Shown in pieces: positions 3,003 to 48,259 of a DNA stretch of 64,000 nucleotides. Location of the stretch: contig OZ024740.1 in assembly GCA_964016885.1 (NCBI GenBank), positions 67,828,001 through 67,892,000 of the forward strand, given 5' to 3'. A program made the translations under genes and the position numbers. The DNA is from Eledone cirrhosa (Eukaryota). A model generated the notes under the pieces. That model was not told the origin of the DNA. It saw only the letters and a list, made by a program, of their open reading frames with translations, and searched no databases. Numbering within the stretch: the stretch's first letter is position 1; every line of letters begins with the position of its first letter.

Positions 3003-3224
3003 GATATATTTCTTTATTTACCATAAAGGCATAAAAAGAAGGGACAAATACAAAGGGGGAGTTTACATACAATCGAGTAAAAAGTGTATGAAATGAAAAT
3101 AATCGAAAACAACCTCAAAAGGGAGGGGACGTGATGGGGGTTGCACACACCCCCGAAAAAGGGGTGCAATCCTTTGCCCGGGGAGCACATGGAGAAGGTG
3201 CTCCCCTCTCCTTCACTTTTTTAC

Positions 3225-6200
3225 CTACAGGATGGTATACAGAGAAGGCCCATTTACACGAGCCATTCTCGCCACTATCACCCACCTTTCATAAAACTGC
3301 CTGTGGCCAAGCACCTCTCTGTCCATTCTTATCCTTCTTCCGAAGTGATATCGGAAGAAGTAGACCAGACTATGGCCAGAGAGGAAGTTGCCTGACGTCA
3401 GACCTTTCAATCGTGTCCACCAAACAACCTCTTTCAACATGGCTATTACGCACAGAAAAACCGCCTTTGCTTCCTTTGTGAAGAGGGGAGGCGGTTTGAT
3501 TGTCATCACGGACTCGGCGGTCAATTGAATCGGCGCCACCCGCGACAGCAGTCGTTCGGCGTAGCCCCACAGATCAGTCACGCCCGGACATTGCACTAAT
3601 GCGTGCGCAACGGTTTCTTCGTGACGCACGCATCTAGGGCAAATCTTTTTCGAGGGATCCCTGCCCGGGCGCCCGTGTCTGTAGAGCCTCTCTCGAACGG
3701 GTAGAGCCCCCCGGTAGCACTGCCAGGCTAGTGACTTCTGGAAGTTGTCCATTGGTCCCGGGCCGAAAGTCCTACCGAACAGGCTGGCCAGTTCGTCCTC
3801 TTCCATGTCCAGCGACTCTCCAAGGGTGTCATCGCCCCTGCTAGGCACCAGCCTTCTATAGAATGATGAGGTGGATTCTCCACCGATGGCCTGGCCCGTT
3901 TGCCAGAGAGCCCTGAGCGCCTGAGCACACTCAGTGTGCCAATCTCCCAGTTTTCCGGATCTTTGCTTGACCCAGGACTGCAGCTCGGTGAGCGAGACGA
4001 GTCTCGGAAAGGCTCGTTTCACGAACGGAGCCCACACCGGTTGACCAGTGAGGAATACCTGTAGGTGCCGTAGCCTTAATGCGTGGCGACGCATCATCAA
4101 CCACGGCATCCCCAGCCCTCCTTTCGAAGGTTTTTGGCAGCAGATGGATCTTCTCACCATAGGAGGGCGCTTCTTCCAAAGAAATTGGAAGAGCATGCGT
4201 TCCATGGTGGTGAGGGTTTGCTTAGGACAAGGCACGACAGTCAGGCGGTAGTAAGTGACGGACGCTATGTAAATGTTCGCCACCTCCGCCCGGCCTTTTA
4301 GGGACAGCTTGCACTTGGCCCATTTCTGGGTTAGTGCAAACACCTTGTTCGTAACCTCGTCCCAGTTCTTTTCCACCTGGAGGTCCGGTCCAAACCAGAC
4401 CCCAAGCAACTTTACCGGGCCCTCCATCCAGTGTCCGACGACACCGTTGGGAGGCAACGGTCTTCCCCTCCACGTTCCGAGTTGCAGCCCGATGGATTTT
4501 TCCCGGTCCAGTTTCGCTCCTGACAACCTTTCATAATCCTCCAGTAAGGTACCGATCGCCTCGATCTCCGAGTTGGTCGATACCATTACTTGTACGTCAT
4601 CGGCGTAGGCCGACACCGCTTTGCTCAATCCTGGTTCCAGGGGGATACCCTGCAGCAACTCTAACTTCCTCAGTAAAGGCTTGAGAGTCAATACGTACAG
4701 AAGGGAGGAGAGAGGGCACCCCTGTCGAATGAATCGTGTGATATCGAACGGCTTCGAAAGGTAGCCGTTCACCTTGATCCTAGAACAGATGTGGTTGCTA
4801 TGTAAGGCAGTGATCCAGCCTCTGAAAACAGGACCGAACCCAGCCGCCGCTGGGCACCGCATCCAGGTAACCATGGTCGACCCTATCGAAGGCCTTAGAC
4901 TGATCCAAGTTGATCAGGGCCCCACCGAAGCCGGGTTTGTTGCCAACCTTCTCTATGATGTATCGCATGAGGTGGAGGTTATCGTGAATGGACCTGGATG
5001 TGATAGCACATGTCTGCGCATCTCCCACCAGGCTACCCACGACAAGCGCCAACCTCTTTGCTAACACCTTGGCCAAAATCTTTAACTCTGTGTTTAGCAG
5101 GGTTATGGGCCGAACATTATTTATACTATCCCTCTTGTTCTCGTCCTTCCTCACCAGCGAGACTACGCCCTTGGCTACAGAACAAGGAATTCTCCCGTTC
5201 TGCTGCCAATTGCAGTATACCGCTTCGAGGAGTTCGGAGAAGAAGACCGGCATTGCTAAATAAAGTTCGTAAGGTATACCATCGAGACCTGGAGATTTGC
5301 GTCTGCTGCATTGGCTCAGCACATTCCCGATCTCATCAGCCGAGATTGGTCCCTCGCAGGACTCTGCCTCTTCGCTCGAGAGACGCGGCAGGCCGTCAGG
5401 TATGGACCGAAATCCACGTCCCCGCCCGGACCCTCGCCTCCCCTGAATAATCGGGCAAAGTGCCTTTGAAAGGCGTCGCACATCTGCTTAGGCTCCCGGA
5501 TCACCCGTCCATCCTCGTCTTGCAACGACCGGAGGGTGGATCGATTTCCACTCTTAGCTTCTGTCACGCGGGCCCAGCCAACGGCTTTGGCCCCCTCATT
5601 ACCTAGAGCACGTATTTTACTTCGAATGACGCAGCCTTCGTGCTTTGCATCGAACAACTGGTTCAAGGCCGTCCTCGATGCCAGCACTCTGGCCACATCT
5701 TCGCTCTTGATTGCCTCTTCTAATTTACCTGTTAATACTTTCTCGTTTCTATTCCTATCGGCAGCTAACATCTTGCTATAACTTATTGATTCTCTTCTAA
5801 TCTCTCTTTTGAGAGATGCCCACCATCGGTTGTTGACGATTGCACCCGTCAACCTCTCCTTAACTAATCTGCTAATCCGGTCTCTGTAACCCTCTTTTGC
5901 CGGTAAAGACAAATTAAGTTTCCAGTAACCGGGACCCTGTCTATGTGTTCTCTCGAGATTGACTACGCAGGTCACTAATTTGTGATCCGTATATCCAACC
6001 GTGCGCATTTCTGGACAGCTTAATATGTCCCTATCCTTATTTCTAACTAAGAATCTATCTAAGTACGATCTAGATTGACCACTGTGGTTCGTTCAAGTCC
6101 AGGTAGGCACAGTTGGATATCTATCGACCAAGTTAAAACGGTCGAGTAACCCCTTGAGGCTGTTACACCCCCTCTATTAGGACATGCTCCCTGCATAGTC

Positions 6201-6651
6201 CCAACCTGCATCTAGGATGTCATTCCAATCCCCCCGCTAGAAGCAGGGAACGCGACGTTCCCAGAAAAGTCTCCAAACGCTGGAAGAAGTCCGGCCGTTC
6301 AGCTCCGAAAGGGGAGTAGACGGCGACCAGTCTCAAGGCCGCACCTTCACTACTGCCAACGTCTAGTACCAACAAACGACCCTCCGGGTCCGAGTGAACA
6401 ACCTGTACGGCAAGACCCAGGTGTTTTTGCAGCAGTACGACAACCCCACCCCCACCTCCAGGTTGACAGAGAGATGCATGCACCTCAAAGTCATCGAAGG
6501 TAGGGGCCAGCTTCCGCACGACGCTGATCCGAGTCTCACAGATAACCATTACATTTATAACACATGACCTGAGGTCATTTAGAAGCTTTACTTGCTTCCA
6601 AGTTGAGCCCAGGTCACGTGCATTCAAACATCCTACTCTTAACACATCCAT
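3225..6651 (-). pseudogene. LINE ORF2 (APE endonuclease-RT-zinc finger), split by several frameshifts
   Basis: Fragments 6220-6651 (CLNAR, ICETR, GRLL..VAVYSP), 5316-6008 (TDHKLV, PGYWKLN), 4798-5481 (KSPGLDG, RPITLLNTELKILAKVLA), 3225-4874 (YADD, GGLGMP, CPRC..ETVAHALVQC). Confidence 0.92.
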
Positions 6652-6684
6652 GTGGGCGGCAGAGCCAAAGGAGAGTGTAGAGAC

Positions 6685-8424
6685 CTACCTTTCTGCTTCC
6701 CGGGGTTCGGGTCGCACGACTTCCATGGGGTCGGGGATGTTGGGTGAACGGGTGTCTTGTGGTGGTGTGGGGTCGTCAGTGTGTGGTGGGGTTAGGGTGT
6801 TTGGAGTTGTGTTGGGGAGGGGAACGGGGGGGGGGAAGCTTTTTAGTAGGACGCGGTTTATGGGTTTGACAGAGGGCGGTCCTACGTCCTCCTTAAAATC
6901 CTTTTTTAGTTTTTGGTAGAGGATCATTGGGATCTTTATTAATTTTAAATGTTGGTAGTTTTCTGAAGAAACAAAGTTTACACCTTCGGTTTGTACCGAA
7001 GGATTATTGTTTATGAGTTCATTTAATTTATTATTGTTTCTGTTGATGTAAGAATAGTGTAATGTCTTTTTTTCGGATGGTGTGTGTGTTTCGAAGAGGA
7101 GAGGGGCAGGTTTGGTTTTGTTTGTTGCTGGAGGGGTGTTTTGTGTTTTGTTGGATTGTGTTGACATTTGGGTGGGGGTTGTTTGGCCTTGTGTGTTTTG
7201 CACATGTTTTCTTTTTTTCTTTTTAATCTGTCTGAAGGACTCCATTTCTTCCTCCGAATTCGTTGGGTTATCTTCAGTGTTGGAGGGAAGAGGCATGTTT
7301 GCTGGTAATGTTTCCGTGTTGGTTTTCTTTGTGGGGGAGATGGATGTCACTATGTTAGACTGTGTTGTGTGTTGTAGCTGCGGTGGTTGTGTTGTTTTAT
7401 TGAGTGAGGGTTTGGGTGCGCCTGTATTTTGTTTTGGGGTAATGTGTTCTGACTGTTTGTGTTGTGGTGGTGGTGTAGTTTTACTGAGGGACGGGTTGGG
7501 TGGGACTGAGTTTTGTTGTTTGTTTATCTGTTGTGGTGGTGGTGGTGGAGCTGGTGTTGGTAGCAGGGTTTTCTTTTTGTTGAGTTGGGGACAAGCCGCC
7601 TTCAGGTGCCCTCTGCCTGCACAGATATGACAGGACGGTCTTCTCCCCTCCACGCTAATGTTTATATACCCGTGGCCCTCTAATAGGATTCTGTCGGGTA
7701 TTTTGGCGATGCGTTCAGGCTTCATTTGCACTACAAGCTCTATACCTGTTCCACTGAACGCATTGCCTGTGGTTTTCCCAATGGAAATCACGTTGTCATT
7801 CGCTGGATCGATGAAGCCAGCTATGAGCCAGCAGTAGTCCACATCTGGCATCATTGCATCCAGCCATATGCGTTGAGTTCTTTTACCCATATAAGATGGA
7901 TAAAAGGTAAAATTTTCGAACGAATCGGTGAAAAAAGCACATTTTTTTGCCGCCGATTCGTTCTTCATAATAATCGCTAGGCTTCCATACAGTCTGTCTT
8001 TTCTTATGAAAGTGGTTTCATTAAGTACTTCTGTGAGTACTGTTTTAAATTTTGTTTGAGTTGGCTGTTCAGGTTTTTTAGAAGTGTTGTTGATGGTGCG
8101 GAAAACGACCGTTCGACTTTCAATGTCTTTGGTGAGTTCTTGAGGCATTTTTACCGATAAAATACCATTCTCTCCTTCAGTTATATATTGTTTGGCGTCT
8201 GCAATTCTTTGTGTCATATCTGAAATATTTTCAGGTATATATGTCAAATATTTCTTTGTTGTTTGTGCAAATGAAATCTTATTGGTGTTGACTTTGTCGT
8301 CTGCTTTGCTTTCTGTTATGATGTTGTTTTCAAATGTTATTTTTGTGTTTGTTGTGTCTTTGTTTGTGGTATTAACATTGTCATGCAATTTTTCAAATTT
8401 TTTTTTTTCCTTGTTGGAATCCAT
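6685..8424 (-). CDS. LINE ORF1 (gag-like nucleic-acid-binding protein), 579 aa, uninterrupted
   Basis: Zinc knuckle CHICAGRGHLKAAC, Pro/Thr-rich linker, basic KKKKRK; homologous to ORF1 fragments of copy 2 (FPTYMGRR, QMRPERVEKIPDRIVLE, CHKCGKTTHLKAFCP). Confidence 0.88.
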   Translation of the reverse strand: MDSNKEKKKFEKLHDNVNTTNKDTTNTKITFENNIITESKADDKVNTNKISFAQTTKKYLTYIPENISDMTQRIADAKQYITEGENGILSVKMPQELTKDIESRTVVFRTINNTSKKPEQPTQTKFKTVLTEVLNETTFIRKDRLYGSLAIIMKNESAAKKCAFFTDSFENFTFYPSYMGKRTQRIWLDAMMPDVDYCWLIAGFIDPANDNVISIGKTTGNAFSGTGIELVVQMKPERIAKIPDRILLEGHGYINISVEGRRPSCHICAGRGHLKAACPQLNKKKTLLPTPAPPPPPQQINKQQNSVPPNPSLSKTTPPPQHKQSEHITPKQNTGAPKPSLNKTTQPPQLQHTTQSNIVTSISPTKKTNTETLPANMPLPSNTEDNPTNSEEEMESFRQIKKKKRKHVQNTQGQTTPTQMSTQSNKTQNTPPATNKTKPAPLLFETHTPSEKKTLHYSYINRNNNKLNELINNNPSVQTEGVNFVSSENYQHLKLIKIPMILYQKLKKDFKEDVGPPSVKPINRVLLKSFPPPVPLPNTTPNTLTPPHTDDPTPPQDTRSPNIPDPMEVVRPEPREAER

Positions 8425-9446
8425 GTCCAGATTTGTGTTTTCGTCATTTTTCTCCGCAGATTCGTCTGTTTTTATTTTATGTTTTCCTTCCTTCTCTATG
8501 ACGTTAGTTGGGAAGGAAGGGGGGGGGGACTAAAGCGTGCGAGCTTACAACTCTTACCGCTGTCCCCCACCACTATTTTCGTTAGCTTCGTTTAACATTT
8601 CTGTCAGACGATTGAAATTTTTTTTATGCCACAAAATTAAAAAAAACAGGTTTTTCACCCCTAGGAGGGGTAAAGATGAGCTGACCCACCGCCTGACAGT
8701 TCAGACGGGGTGTCAAGCTACACAATAGTATCAAAATTAAAATTGAACTTACAAAATTTCCGCAATAAATTTGAACAAAACTTCTGCGCGAAGTGAATTA
8801 CATCTACGCTGTAGAACAGACGACAGATAGATTTTTTATATATATATATAGATATATATATATATATATAGATATATATATATATATAAGGTATTTATTT
8901 TAGATACAGCAAGGCATAAACAAATGTCATCAATTATTAAGCCGTGTAGCCCTGAGCAGTCACACAAATATAAACACAGACACACACAAAACACAGACAC
9001 ACACAAACACACACACACACATACACATATGTGATACCGAGTTAAATCAGAGGTTACAACAGTATAAAAGTGTGCTCAATACATTAAGATAATGTAAATA
9101 TCATTATGTAATATGGAAACAGCTTCCACAGGATTAGAACTGTATAATTCGTATAAAAGCATTAGGAATGCCACGTGACATAGTGATTGATTGATACGTA
9201 TAGGTTACTTAGTGCGATGGTGGCGGCGGGAGCTGTGTGGATGGGTGTATTGACATGCATATACTCATACACACACACATGCATATGCTCATGATACTCA
9301 TACACACAGGCTCATAAAATAGCTCTTCTATATATTTATATTTAAACGCATACACGATTATACGTGGGAACACTTGTGTGTTGTTTGCATATGCGTGAGT
9401 GTATATATATATATTAATTTATACACACACACACACACAGACACAT

Positions 9447-42937: not shown

Positions 42938-44421
42938 ATGTACATTTCCCCAAAGTCCAAATATTTGGAAGAAGCTTCCAACTATGTGACGCCTGAGAGA
43001 GACACCCCACACATACACATACCCCCGCAAGTAAGAGAGATGACAAAGAAAAAGAAGCTAAGTTATAGAACAGTTGACATCATTACCAAAAAATCCATAA
43101 CGCTCCCAACAAACACTATTGAAGCTGCACTAAAAGATATCAAGCCAGACGTGGCATACCTCCAAAGAGGTAAACAGTATGGAAGTGTTTCAGTGCTCTT
43201 TAAGAGCGAAACTCTGGCTCAAAAACACTCAGTTTACCTAATAATAACGGATCAACACATATTCTTCCCCACATACATGGGAAGGAGATCATACAAAATA
43301 AAAATAACCAAGATCCCAGCAGAGGTAAGCATATGGTGAATCCTATGCTGCATCCCGAAGAAGGATGAGGACACCCTCCTATCTGTAGACAGGACAGACC
43401 GGAATAACTGTTTTGGAACCTGCATCAAGGTTCTGGTACAAATGAGGCCAGAGAGAGTTGAGAAAATCCCGGACAGGATCGTCCTTGAGGAAGATGTCAT
43501 CTCCATTTTAGTGGAGGGAAAAAGACCTCAATGCCATAAGTGCGGGAAAACCACACACTTAAAGGCCTTTTGCCCTCTCTTAAACAAACCTAGGACAAAG
43601 AAGGTGTTATTACAAACACCAAAACCCCAACATCAACACCCCAAACCAAACATAACACAAAAACCTGCAACATCCACTCCCACACCACTACAGACCTGAG
43701 ACAACCACACACACAATCCCACTGAAAAAACATCCATTGCCTCCTCCCTCCCTGTCAAATACTTCCACAAACACCTGCACAATCACACCACCACACAACA
43801 TACCCCTCCCATCTACCCCTGATTCAGAAGTCTCAGACACGAGAACCTCTACATCTACATGTGAGAATGAAGAGGCACCCAAAAATTCAAAAAACAAAAA
43901 AAGGGACAAACAAAAAACACAAACACAAAAACATCTACAGAAAACACGCACACACCCAACCCCACCATAAACACGACGCCACAAACGACAAACACACCAA
44001 CTACACAATCACCACCAATACAACCAAACAATTCACCCACAAAACAAACACCCACACTACCACAATCACAAACCCCAACCACTAACAGAAAACTACAAAC
44101 AGTAACAGCACACATAAAAAAACAAAACATCTTACACATACATAAAAACAAAAAAGAATTGTTAGACACTGTCCGAAAGGACCCTACTATCCAAAGGGAA
44201 GGGAAAACCTTCCCCACCAACGACCCACCGCCAAACCTCAAACTGATCAGGGTAACAACCCTACAACATGTAACATTGAAAGGGACATTCCCACATGGTG
44301 TGGGCCCCCCTTGCCAAAAAACCCTTAACCGTGTGCTGCTAAAAGGATTCCCCCCTCGCCAAACACCCCCAATCTTGACATGGAGATCGAACAAGCCGAC
44401 CTCCAGGAAACGAAAAGGTAA
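42938..44421 (+). pseudogene. LINE ORF1 remnant
   Basis: FPTYMGRR, CHKCGKTTHLKAFCP, NRVLLKGFPP, terminal MEIEQADLQETKR*; the true start is probably further upstream. Confidence 0.8.
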
Positions 44422-44464
44422 GTGTTCCTGCCTTTTCTCTCCCTTATCTCTCTTCTTCACCAAT

Positions 44465-47400
44465 ATGGCGACTATACAGGTTGGATGTTCGAATGTACGT
44501 GGCTCGGGCATGCCCTGGAAACATGGCCAGCTTTTAAATGATCTCAATTCACATTGCATAGATGTGATAGCCATCACCGAGTCCAGGATTCATGACAGGC
44601 AGCAGCTAACCCCCATGTTCGATGACTTTGAGATCTACGTATCTCTCTGTCAGCCAGGAGGTGGAGGGGGAGTTGGTGTTCTGTTTCGAAAAAACTTGGA
44701 TCTCAAAGTACAGACGATTCACTTGGAACGGAGGGCAGCTTGGTAGTCCTGAAAGTAAATGGTAGTGAAGGTGGACCTTTCAGATTCGTGGCCGTATATG
44801 CTCCGACTGGGACATCGCGACCAGAGTTCTTCAAGCGTCTGGAGCCATTCCTGGGAACGTCTCGCTCCTTAGTATTAGCGGGGGACTGAAATGGCATCTT
44901 AGATGCACGTTGGGACTATGTAGGAGCTTGTGATAAAAGAGGGGGGGGGGGGGGTAATAGCCTGAAAAATTTAATCAGCCTATTCCAACTGGCTGATAGA
45001 TATCGACTAGACTTCCCAAGTGTACCACTGTGGACGTGGAGCACCCGCACTGGGTCTTCTAGATCGTATTTAGATAGATTTTTAATTAGACAGAAAGATA
45101 AGGAAACATTAAGCAGTCCACAAATGCACATGGTTGCCTATTCAGACCTCAAATTAGTCACCTGCGTAGTGAACCTTGATAGAACACATAGACAGGGACC
45201 CGGATACTGGAAGCTAAACATGTCGCTTCCGGCACGTAAGGCCTACAGTAAACGGATTAGCACCTTAGTTAAGTGCCAGTTGACGGGGGCGATCGTCAAC
45301 AACAGGTGGTGAAGCTCTCTCAAGAGACAATTAGAATGGAATCGATAGTATTTCGCAAGAAAGTAGCTTTAGAAAAAACAAAGCCGAAAAGGAACTGGTA
45401 GCTAAAGTAGAAGAGACCCTTAGGAATGGCAGTACAGCTGAAGTGCTAGCGGCGAGAACGGCACTAGAACGGCACTAGACAATTTCTTCAACGTGAAACA
45501 CAAAGGTTGTATTGTCAGAAGTAGAACACGTGCTCTAAGAAACGAGGGTACCAAAGCTGTTAGCTGGGCCCGAGTGGCAGATGCGAAAAGTGACAACAAA
45601 TCCACAATTCGGTCCTTGCAAGACAAAGATGGATGCATTCTACTTGAATCCAAGCAGATGTGCACGGTCTTCCAGCAGCATTTTGCACAACTGTTCGGGC
45701 AAAGCGGTACGTCAAGGGAAGTGATGGACTTCAGCTCCTACCTCGACGGCGTACCACGATTCTCGAACAGGGATTCGGTGAGCGAAAGGCCGATCACAGC
45801 GGGCGAAATAGAAGATGCCCTTGGTCGCTGTGGGAAAAGTAAATCACCCGGTTTAGATGAGTGTTACATAGGCATACCAGACTTGTTCTCTGGCGTCCTC
45901 GAAGCGGTCCACTGCAACTAGTAACAGAACGGGAGGATTCCTGTTCTGTAGGCAGAGGCGTAGTAACGCTGATCAGGAAAGATGAGAACAAGGGGGATGA
46001 GATAAGCAATTTCAGGCCCATAACCCTGCTTAACACAGAGTTAAAGATTTTGGCCAAGGTGTTAGCAACGAGGCTGGCGCTTTTCATCTAGAATCTGGCA
46101 GGGGAAGCGCGGACGTGTGCAATCCCGACCAGGTCCATACACGACAACCTCCACCTCATGCGATACATCATACAGAGGGTAGGGTGTAAACCTGACTTCG
46201 GTGGGGATCTGATCAATTTAGATCAGTCTAAGGCATTTGATAGGGTCGACCATCAATACTTGAAAGCGGTTCTCAAGGCGGACGGCTTCGGTCCCGTCTT
46301 CAGAGGCCGGATCGCTGCCATGCACACCAGCATCTGCTCGGCAGTCAAGGTGAATGGCTACCTACTGGAGCCATTCCAAATAATGCGTTCCATCCGTCAG
46401 GGGTGCCTTCTCTTCTCCATTCTGTATGTACTGACTCTCGAGCCATTACTGCGGAAAGTGGAGCTGTTGCAGGGCATCCCGGTCGAACCAGGACTGCGGA
46501 AAGCAGCGTCGGTCTATGTCGACGACATAACCGCAATGGTGTCGATAACCTCGGACATCGGGGTAATCGGTAACCTATTACAGGAATACGAAACGTTGAC
46601 AAGAGCAAGACTAAACCCAAACAAGTCTGTCGGTTTGCAACTCAGCACATGGAGAGGCAAACCCATGTCTTCCGACAGTGTCGTTGGACGCTGGACGGAA
46701 GGACTGGTGAAATTGCTCGGGGTCTGGTTTGGTCCAGACATCCAGGTGGACCAGAACTGGAACGAGGTCACGGCGAAGGTGTTTGCACTTACCCACAAGT
46801 GGGCTGAGTGCAAACTCTCCTTCACAGGTCGAGCAGAGGTGGCGAAAACTTACATAGCGTCCGTCATCTACTACCGCTTGACAGTCGTGCCTTGTCCCCG
46901 TGAATACCTTACCAAAATGGAACCAAGTTCCTCTGGTAGAAACAGGCTCCATTGGTGAGGAGGTCCATCTGCTGTCAACACCCTTCTAACGGAGGGCTGG
47001 GCATGCCGTGACTGATGATGCGCAAACACGCACTGAGGCTACGCCATCTCCAGCTGTTCCTGAACGGTGAATCGGTGTGGCTGTCGTTTGTGAGACGAGC
47101 TCTTCCACAACTCGTCTCACTAACAGAGCTGCAGTCCTGGGTTAAGCGAAGACCGAAAATGGGCGCCTGGCACCTCGAGTGCGTTCAGGGGCTCACAGCC
47201 CTCTACCAAGCGGAAACGGAAATTAGTGGAGACATGACTTCGACATTCTATAGGGGATTAGTAGAAGATAAGTGCGACGACGTTCTAGGTGAAAATCTAG
47301 GCATCGAGGAAGACGAACTGACCAGTTTGTTTGGGAGGACTTTCCGTCCAGGGCTTATGGATAACTTCCAGAGCTGTCTGGCCTGGCAGTGCTACCAAAG

Positions 47401-47884
47401 AGCACTTCCAGTTCGAGACAAAATCTACAGGCACGGACACCCAGGCAGAGATCCTGCCAAAAGGACCTGTCCAATATGCGAGCAGGACATCGAAACCGTT
47501 CTTCACGCAATTGTTCAGTGCCCAGGGGTGACCATCCTGTGGAATTATGTCGAACAGCTACTGTCACGTGTAGGACGCATCCAGTTGTCAGCCGAGTCCA
47601 TCGAGAGGATCACCCCTCCGCCTTCATTTAAGAATGAAGCAGAGGCAATGTTCCTCAGTCTGGTGGCTATGGCGAAAGAGGTAATATGGTGGACGAGGTT
47701 AAAAGGACTGAGGGCAAGCACCTTTCTCTCCGGACAACAACTCAACCCCTTCTTTAAGTACCACTTCAGAAGGAAGGTGAGAGTGGAGAGAGAGATGCTG
47801 CACTCCAGTAAATTTGTTGAACGGTGGGTGAATGTGGCGAAAATGGCCCGGGTAAATGGGCCTTCTCTGTATATAAACCTATAG
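44465..47884 (+). pseudogene. LINE ORF2 remnant (APE-RT-ZnF)
   Basis: MATIQVGCSNVRG, PGYWKLN, FRPITLLNTELKILAKVLA, DQSKAFDRVDH, YVDD, CPICEQDIETVLHAIVQC, VNGPSLYINL*. Confidence 0.92.
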
Positions 47885-48119
47885 GTTGAAGAAGATAAAC
47901 AGAGGGAAGACGGGTTATCGAGGGTTGTTCTATCCACGGGATGTTAAACAACCCCACAGTAGCGTTACCCCCTCCACCTAATGGGGATTTCAATTGTTTT
48001 ATTTTTATATAGTTTATTGTTATTTATCATTGTTAAAGATTTTATGTAAAACCCCCGCCATCACGTCTTGTAACGTCCCAATGGTGTACCCGGCTGTGGC
48101 AAATAAAGAAAGATATCTT

Positions 48120-48259
<140 letters not shown>

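Follow-up and report, generated by a model that had tools for sequence, protein, structure and literature searches.

Spliced RNAs have been proven for copia of Drosophila and for EVD, a Ty1/Copia element of Arabidopsis with a conserved U1 site and a spliced product called shGAG RNA. In these elements, U1 enables splicing and also blocks premature termination, as described in PMC5580714. Here, a long interspersed nuclear element (LINE) of the L1/Tx1 type is compared with these and other described systems. It lies in a stretch of 64,000 nucleotides (nt) from Eledone cirrhosa (GenBank assembly GCA_964016885.1, contig OZ024740.1, positions 67,828,001 to 67,892,000), referred to as the window throughout. 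A U1-type 5' splice site (donor) stands at the end of its first open reading frame (ORF1), and two complementary arms are predicted to close the second frame (ORF2) into a loop. Together, donor and arms may well decide between full-length RNA and a spliced, ORF1-only RNA, a reading that we favour tentatively.

These LINEs share with copia and EVD a conserved U1 site located where the structural ORF ends. The intron of copia is about 3 kb long and ends near the 3' end of the element, and the candidate intron of the LINE is comparable. However, copia and EVD are long terminal repeat (LTR) elements with a single polyprotein frame, whereas the element described here is bicistronic and non-LTR, and its splicing is predicted only. 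A further difference is the predicted long-range helix over the splice sites, no such helix being mentioned in the available portion of PMC5580714. With two L1-type ORFs and no terminal repeats, the LINE lacks the gag-pol organization of LTR elements. It may work like copia but is no member of that group.

Splicing within LINE RNA is described for the SpIREs of human L1 (PMC5860796). Those described are spliced inside the 5' untranslated region (UTR) or into ORF1; genomic copies of them exist, and they are termed dead ends. The likeness lies in donors and acceptors inside a LINE RNA, which are functional in human L1, but the donor described here stands at the ORF1 end, is conserved across lineages and is not accompanied by spliced copies. 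HAL1 half-L1 elements are ORF1-only derivatives. Progeny of this kind had been predicted by an earlier interpretation made from the letters of the stretch alone (the sequence-only reading), which regarded ORF2 as one intron with its donor on the ORF1 stop and its acceptor on the ORF2 stop. In contrast to HAL1, the six family groups searched here yielded no copy reduced to ORF1. Since no spliced copies were found in the searched families, the LINE represents neither the SpIRE nor the HAL1 case.

In plus-strand RNA viruses (Tombusviridae, Luteoviridae), sequences at the 3' end pair, at a distance of kilobases, with the junction that precedes the polymerase ORF (PMC5767303 and PMC5009743). A contact of a 3' end with a pre-polymerase junction on the same kilobase scale is predicted in the LINE, but here it measures about 120 nt, spans both the start and the stop of ORF2, covers a donor and belongs to a nuclear transcript of the Pol II type. 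For octopod L1-Tx1 LINEs, recently active families have been reported (PMC13282606); neither 'splic' nor 'ORF1' occurs in the main text, to which this statement is limited. A literature search by title and abstract, which excludes subscription papers, repeat-database annotations and supplements, returned no conserved donor at an ORF1 end and no ORF2-closing helix in non-LTR elements.

Conservation of the donor site

The full-length element occupies positions 3003..8832 on the minus strand (about 5.8 kb; the ends are approximate and were set by comparison with other copies). ORF1 (6685..8424, minus strand) comprises 579 codons from its first Met at 8424 and ends in E-R-stop, the frame being open from stop to stop across 8529-6685. 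It is followed by a pyrimidine-rich inter-ORF spacer (6652..6684, minus strand), the predicted partner of the purine-rich start of the 3' UTR, and by ORF2 (3225..6651, minus strand; AUG at 6651, stop at 3227-3225). ORF2 encodes an endonuclease, a reverse transcriptase (RT) and a zf-RVT domain, and is disrupted in the window copy by stops and frameshifts that distribute it over four frames. The element belongs to family A, which has about 1000 copies with 96-97% identity to the window copy and whose unspliced donor 25-mer has 1033 matches at up to two mismatches in the 3.0-Gb genome. A pattern for the ORF2 endonuclease motif matched 10,288 times genome-wide, compared to 13 matches of the reversed control. 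An ORF2 tree of 25 copies resolved about ten lineages with identities down to 67-69%. Two further types (L163, L172) have no full ORF2 and are not in this tree, and the total is given as about 11 or about a dozen lineages.

The donor AAG/GTAGGT (6683..6691, minus strand) contains the ORF1 stop, and its first intron-side base is 6688. Conservation was scored against the U1 consensus. Among 30 copies selected by the ORF2 endonuclease motif alone and scanned over the 85 nt upstream, 28 have a donor that matches at 8 or 9 of 9 consensus positions, compared to 27 of 930 control windows. Donors were also read off for 98 of the first 100 copies listed among the 10,288 picked by the motif. In a set of 12 representatives, all share the bases at -2 to +3 and at +6, 10 agree at +4 and 11 at +5, and the columns flanking the donor mostly agree in 4-9; these representatives came from a donor-requiring pattern, and the unbiased figure is 28 of 30. 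The changes that do occur fall where U1 pairing tolerates them.

Over about 11 lineages with ORF2 identity down to 67%, the donor is retained in different frames of ORF1: in phase 2 in A, F2, F1 and C, in phase 1 in F3 and F5, and in phase 0 in F4, the ORF1 of which continues across it. Because it persists through frame changes and in all three phases, the stop codon does not account for it. Judged from these comparisons, the motif is a conserved, putative U1-type signal tied to the end of ORF1. Six distant relatives have a clear junction (27-31% identity); five of them are without a donor, and in the sixth (L188) a donor-like motif precedes the stop by 5 nt.

Long-range complementarity

The sequence-only reading overlooked a long-range complementarity that covers both splice motifs. 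Arm 1 (6612..6731, minus strand) consists of the ORF1 end, the donor, the spacer and the first 13 ORF2 codons, and arm 2 (3149..3264, minus strand) of the last 12 ORF2 codons, the stop and the first 75 nt of the 3' UTR. For the window copy, 86 pairs at -101.1 kcal/mol are predicted between these arms (6731-6612 x 3149-3264), which lie 3.4 kb apart, whereas the other 71 partner windows average -56.2 kcal/mol against arm 1 and the next best reaches -80.8 kcal/mol. The ORF2 stop is the best partner window of the 120-nt arm in 12 of 12 copies, narrowly in D, and the helix is stabler on the sense than on the antisense strand in all 12. Within the arms, complementarity links the pyrimidine spacer downstream of the donor to the purine-rich beginning of the same family's 3' UTR. 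Pairing of the donor region and spacer with the first 55 UTR bases gave -35 to -51 kcal/mol in 19 copies (z -1.5 to -5.5 against dinucleotide shuffles), and no ORF2 window beats this short-arm partner in 14 of 16 copies tested.

The pairing is specific to the family. With one copy per lineage (n=11), cognate arms average -43.3 kcal/mol and non-cognate arms -33.1 kcal/mol, a preference equalled in 0 of 200,000 permutations. The spacer alone prefers its own family (28 of 100,000 permutations), and so does the exon end with the donor alone when paired with the UTR (0 of 100,000), while nine control region pairs gave values of 0.04-0.99 and were mostly null. Co-variation is likewise seen between the first 45 and the last 48 nt of ORF2 (69 of 50,000 permutations), their pairing standing out only mildly against synonymously recoded sequences (z -2.7 to +0.7). 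When the register around AUG and stop is fixed as in family A, it has 96 of 110 cells paired and changes on both sides in 5 of 10 columns (6 of 100,000 permutations), and it sets the AUG opposite the last codon and stop in all lineages. These patterns point to a complementarity that is maintained by co-variation on the sense RNA strand, and the predicted, co-evolving long-range helix appears to be the better-supported feature beside the reported splice motifs. An ungapped inverted-repeat scan placed the arms among the top five pairs in only 2 of 5 regions and not in family A, as expected for a bulged helix with G-U pairs. No such helix was found in five distant relatives, and Rfam returned no match.

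Donor positions +2 to +4 or +2 to +3 are looped out of the predicted helix in 5 of 12 copies and are nevertheless kept, including in F4 and F3, in which these bases do not form the stop. Since looped-out bases are still kept, the donor is not explained by helix pairing. A local 3' UTR hairpin with a 9-bp stem (3180..3206, minus strand) overlaps the donor's helix partner in arm 2, so that two mutually exclusive folds are predicted.

The helix could alternatively serve translation and reverse transcription. The ORF2 start would then be buried until a ribosome finishing ORF1 opens the helix, the ORF2 stop would be placed beside the start, and the 3' UTR hairpins would be freed for new ORF2 protein (ORF2p), in parallel to the long-range contacts of plus-strand RNA viruses and with a separate, minor role for the donor. 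The register centred on AUG and stop in all lineages and the overlap of the local hairpin with arm 2 are consistent with such a function. The same applies to F4 (L156-L158, L127; young copies that are 99-100% identical), which has ATA in place of ATG in 9 of 9 rows. Its ORF1 runs past the donor and stops over the ATA codon of ORF2, and in L157 ORF2 is open for 1146 codons with its first Met at 56. AUG-independent ORF2 translation is known for L1 (PMC11485995). However, a role in translation leaves unexplained both the invariant U1 complement and the fact that the exon end and donor segment alone co-varies with the UTR, and we consider it unlikely.

Acceptor sites

The acceptor-like site CTGTAG/GTAA on the ORF2 stop (3221..3250, minus strand; AG at 3226-3225) lies inside arm 2. 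Both splice motifs are present where the sequence-only reading had placed them (GAA AG/G TAG GT with G at 6688, and CTG TAG/G TAA), the ORF2 segment between them measures 3464 nt, in agreement with the proposed 3.46 kb or so, and their join rebuilds E-R-stop in the window copy. The observation was thereby confirmed, while its interpretation is partly supported: scored over the families, the donor is conserved, but the acceptor shows no more conservation than expected, and the precise reconstitution of the ORF1 end holds for family A and is family-specific rather than general. F1, which accounts for about 30 of the first 100 matches listed, has TAA at the ORF2 stop and thus no acceptor there.

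By pyrimidine content, a simple score, the family A acceptor ranks first among 101 YAG (pyrimidine-A-G) sites downstream of the ORF2 start. Among about 100 such sites, the ORF2-stop acceptor is first in A and F4, ranks 1-3 in four other copies and only 8-19 in D, F3 and F5. A synonymous constraint acting on the acceptor was rejected, its four-fold sites being unremarkable (window rank 38 of 305). A join at the ORF2 stop would give a tail of at most three residues in A, F8, F4, F3 and F5 and 19-87 extra residues in F2, L178, C and D, that is, in 4 of the 9 lineages with a YAG stop. From this comparison, a donor phase matched to a stop behind the acceptor was also rejected.

An exact stop-to-stop intron that yields ORF1-only progeny and has no role for RNA structure, as the sequence-only reading proposed, is therefore very unlikely as a design. 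It agrees with the exact or near rebuild in A, F8, F3, F5 and F4 and with the first-ranked acceptor in A and F4, but not with the donor in three phases, the long tails in F2, L178, C and D, the F1 stop without AG, the lack of progeny and the co-varying arms. Even less probable is splicing of the donor to the AG that comes first in ORF2, which would remove a short intron of 42-62 nt and fuse ORF1 and ORF2 in frame. A phase-2 AG within the L-R-V-G codons gives such a fusion in A, F1, F2 and F8, but in D, F4 and part of C the join does not keep the frame, and the intron would be very short. Moreover, the spacer pyrimidines are accounted for by pairing, and no such genomic copies were found in A or F2.

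In F1 and F6, a strong T-rich CAG acceptor-like site is located in the 3' UTR about 160 nt behind the ORF2 stop, in F1 in 10 of 10 copies. F3, F5 and D also have candidate 3' UTR acceptors, although such sites score high easily because the UTRs are T-rich. None of the lineages checked lacks a plausible acceptor on or beyond the ORF2 stop, and the best-scoring acceptors concentrate at the 3' end in most lineages. As a side observation, the 3' UTR CAG site was recorded in L141-L146, L163, L174, L216 and L217 and is absent from the A branch, the UTR tails of which are nearly AG-free.

A conserved donor next to an acceptor that is not could also mean that U1 binds the donor while productive splicing is rare or absent. 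U1 would block premature polyadenylation in the A-rich ORF1 or retain unfinished RNA in the nucleus, the helix would strip it from complete transcripts only as a check for full length, and the acceptor would be a by-product of the helix. AATAAA or ATTAAA hexamers occur within 500 nt upstream of the donor in 8 of 9 copies, and ORF2 is almost free of both. Together with the lack of spliced copies in the families searched and the repression of premature termination by U1 in EVD (PMC5580714), this fits such a role. However, hexamers are expected in an A-rich ORF, one of the nine copies has none upstream of the donor, and the concentration of the best-scoring acceptors at the 3' end argues against it. 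We regard U1 binding with little or no splicing as somewhat unlikely.

Search for spliced copies

Departures from the donor sequence were searched in families A, F2, F1, F4, C and D, leaving out F3, F5, F6 and F8. Through the final-letter filter in the departure patterns, roughly one in four unknown junctions escapes notice; for most families the predicted products were checked by hand against the filters, for F2 and part of C not fully. Nearly all departures are point changes or small indels, and the ORF1-only progeny expected by the sequence-only reading were not among them. Seven larger departures (L215-L220, L222) are microhomology deletions or joins to unrelated DNA, and none is a splice that removes ORF2. 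L219 misses a GT-AG join by one base, and in L220 a satellite of more than 22 kb follows the donor in AG register; 3-4 such junction events are expected by chance according to a rough background estimate. L221 and L223-L225 were rejected as chance matches. As an observation in its own right, L220:1446-2554 is a 5'-truncated C-type ORF1 that ends exactly at the donor and adjoins a 21-bp satellite, the unit of which is acceptor-like in appearance.

For copy L079, the predicted joint 2398 -> 5875 is not among the 15 of 116 contig joints shown from four contig sets of unrecorded kind, and one X4 contig, its kind likewise unrecorded, reads through the acceptor (5605-6108); neither observation weighs for or against splicing. 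Searches for spliced tails in ORF1 proteins by shared words gave no matches, and an ORF1 profile search found relatives, none of them with a predicted spliced tail. An RNA without ORF2 needs mobilization in trans. Because of this need and the cis preference, the absence of copies refutes non-autonomous progeny more than it refutes splicing.

Proposed mechanism

In the favoured mechanism, U1 would occupy the donor on the nascent RNA while ORF2 is transcribed. Once the 3' end emerges, the arms would pair, so that ORF2 forms a closed 3.4-kb loop and the donor is covered, and formation of the helix would compete with recognition of the acceptor. Helix-closed RNAs would shed U1, retain ORF2 and serve both as template and as message for ORF2p. 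Open RNAs would be spliced to the ORF2-stop acceptor in A, F4, F2, F8 and C and to a 3' UTR acceptor in F1, F6 and perhaps F3 and F5. The spliced RNAs would supply excess ORF1 protein (ORF1p), as copia does for Gag. The fact that F1, devoid of an AG at the ORF2 stop, offers a T-rich 3' UTR CAG instead counts in favour of this mechanism.

Several points weigh against it. The spliced junction of family A, at which the sequence-only reading had suggested looking for genomic copies of ORF1 fused to the 3' UTR, has 0 matches at up to two mismatches, compared to 1033 for the unspliced sequence, and the 121 listed donor departures of the six family groups (some rows repeated) contain no GT-AG join that removes ORF2. 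Conservation of the ORF2-stop acceptor does not exceed expectation, in 4 of 12 copies it is preceded by another AG at a distance of 5 nt, and the number of lineages with short joined tails, 5 of 9, is close to the estimated chance figure of 3.5. In the predicted helix, the acceptor pyrimidines pair with the purine-rich first ORF2 codons and TAG/GT with the bases just before the AUG. As the acceptor bases are partners of the ORF2 start context, the look of an acceptor can arise without selection for splicing, and it is probably largely explained by helix pairing. The helix itself is also affected: the short-arm duplex is weakest in A (z -1.5, 20 of 300 shuffles), whole-RNA minimum-energy folds give the helix in only 4 of 7 copies, with neither A nor the window copy among them, and automatic pairwise comparisons counted 64 broken pairs against 36 one-sided and 4 two-sided changes. 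In addition, the arm windows were picked after the complementarity had been seen, and the permutations ignore the tree.

Classification and genomic setting

PF00078 (RT) and PF13966 (zf-RVT) pass the Pfam cut-offs in the ORF2 of the window. The endonuclease domain gave no Pfam match on the window's broken ORF2 pieces. ORF2 relatives at about 40% identity contain PF03372, and the best solved structure match of one of them is human L1 ORF2p (E 1e-72). An N-terminal L1-type apurinic endonuclease is thus indicated indirectly, through relatives. For ORF1, tandem folds resembling the RNA recognition motif (RRM), a CCHC knuckle (invariant in 5 of 5), a low-complexity linker and a conserved C-terminal domain are predicted. 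The ORF1 model (pLDDT 80) matches tandem-RRM proteins with a best E of 2e-5 and TM scores of at most 0.35. Type I ORF1p combines RRM and CCHC knuckle (PMC5203782). With RT and zf-RVT, endonuclease, a type I ORF1p and a target preference for repeats, the element has the features of the L1/Tx1 clade. The closest named ORF1 relatives are octopod proteins. A metagenome scan returned distant relatives (27-31% over full-length matches), and a viral scan returned none. Two ORF1 relatives from other sources (P0078 and P0081, one named Argonauta) end in EGKS and QGK, which is the translation expected from the phase-1 donor in F3 and F5; this applies at the protein level only.

The family A element terminates in AATAAA (3013..3018, minus strand; about 205 nt behind the ORF2 stop), followed by an (ATCT)n-type tail, and not in the poly(A) assumed by the sequence-only reading. 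The tail type is branch-specific, with (ATCT)n in A, F4, F8, C and D and (ATT)n in F1 and F3. Runs of (ATCT)n contain or flank nearly all of 16 full-length copies, which indicates a target preference for this repeat, and full-length copies often form head-to-tail arrangements with members of related families. In family A, the 5' end (window 8827-8809, minus strand) starts with an acceptor-like pyrimidine run ending in CAG, which could use the donor of an upstream element in tandem arrays.

The window also contains a second, diverged element of family D (44415..47910, plus strand), the ORF2 of which is 72% identical to that of family A. Its donor AAG/GTAAGT is located at the 44417/44418 boundary, its ORF2 starts at 44465 and stops at 47882-47884, and its complementary arms lie at 44436-44459 and 47887-47910 (all plus strand). 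In this family, a stretch of the endonuclease region is complementary to its own (ATCT)n tail (window 45071-45100 and 48114-48150). Elsewhere, L152 combines an F3-type 5' part with an F1-type 3' end and is either a recombinant or a nested insertion. The strongest synonymous conservation in ORF2 was observed over 10 lineages at codons -354 to -336 or so from the stop (window mean 0.98 versus 0.73), possibly an RNA signal.

Conclusions

These LINEs may represent a radiation of more than 10,000 copies in about a dozen lineages with a structure-controlled splicing switch, in which a 120-nt helix that senses completion strips U1 and licenses unspliced RNA, the other transcripts becoming ORF1 mRNA. 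We advance this wider statement as a possibility, with some doubt. Long-standing questions about LINEs concern the excess of ORF1p over ORF2p, the translation of the second ORF and the preference for their own full-length RNA. The donor and the co-evolving helix form one concrete, mutable element that bears on all three, and the dozen natural family variants are built-in compensatory mutants. If true, the switch would be the non-LTR counterpart of the copia Gag RNA, in a LINE that brings the start and the stop of its ORF2 into physical contact.

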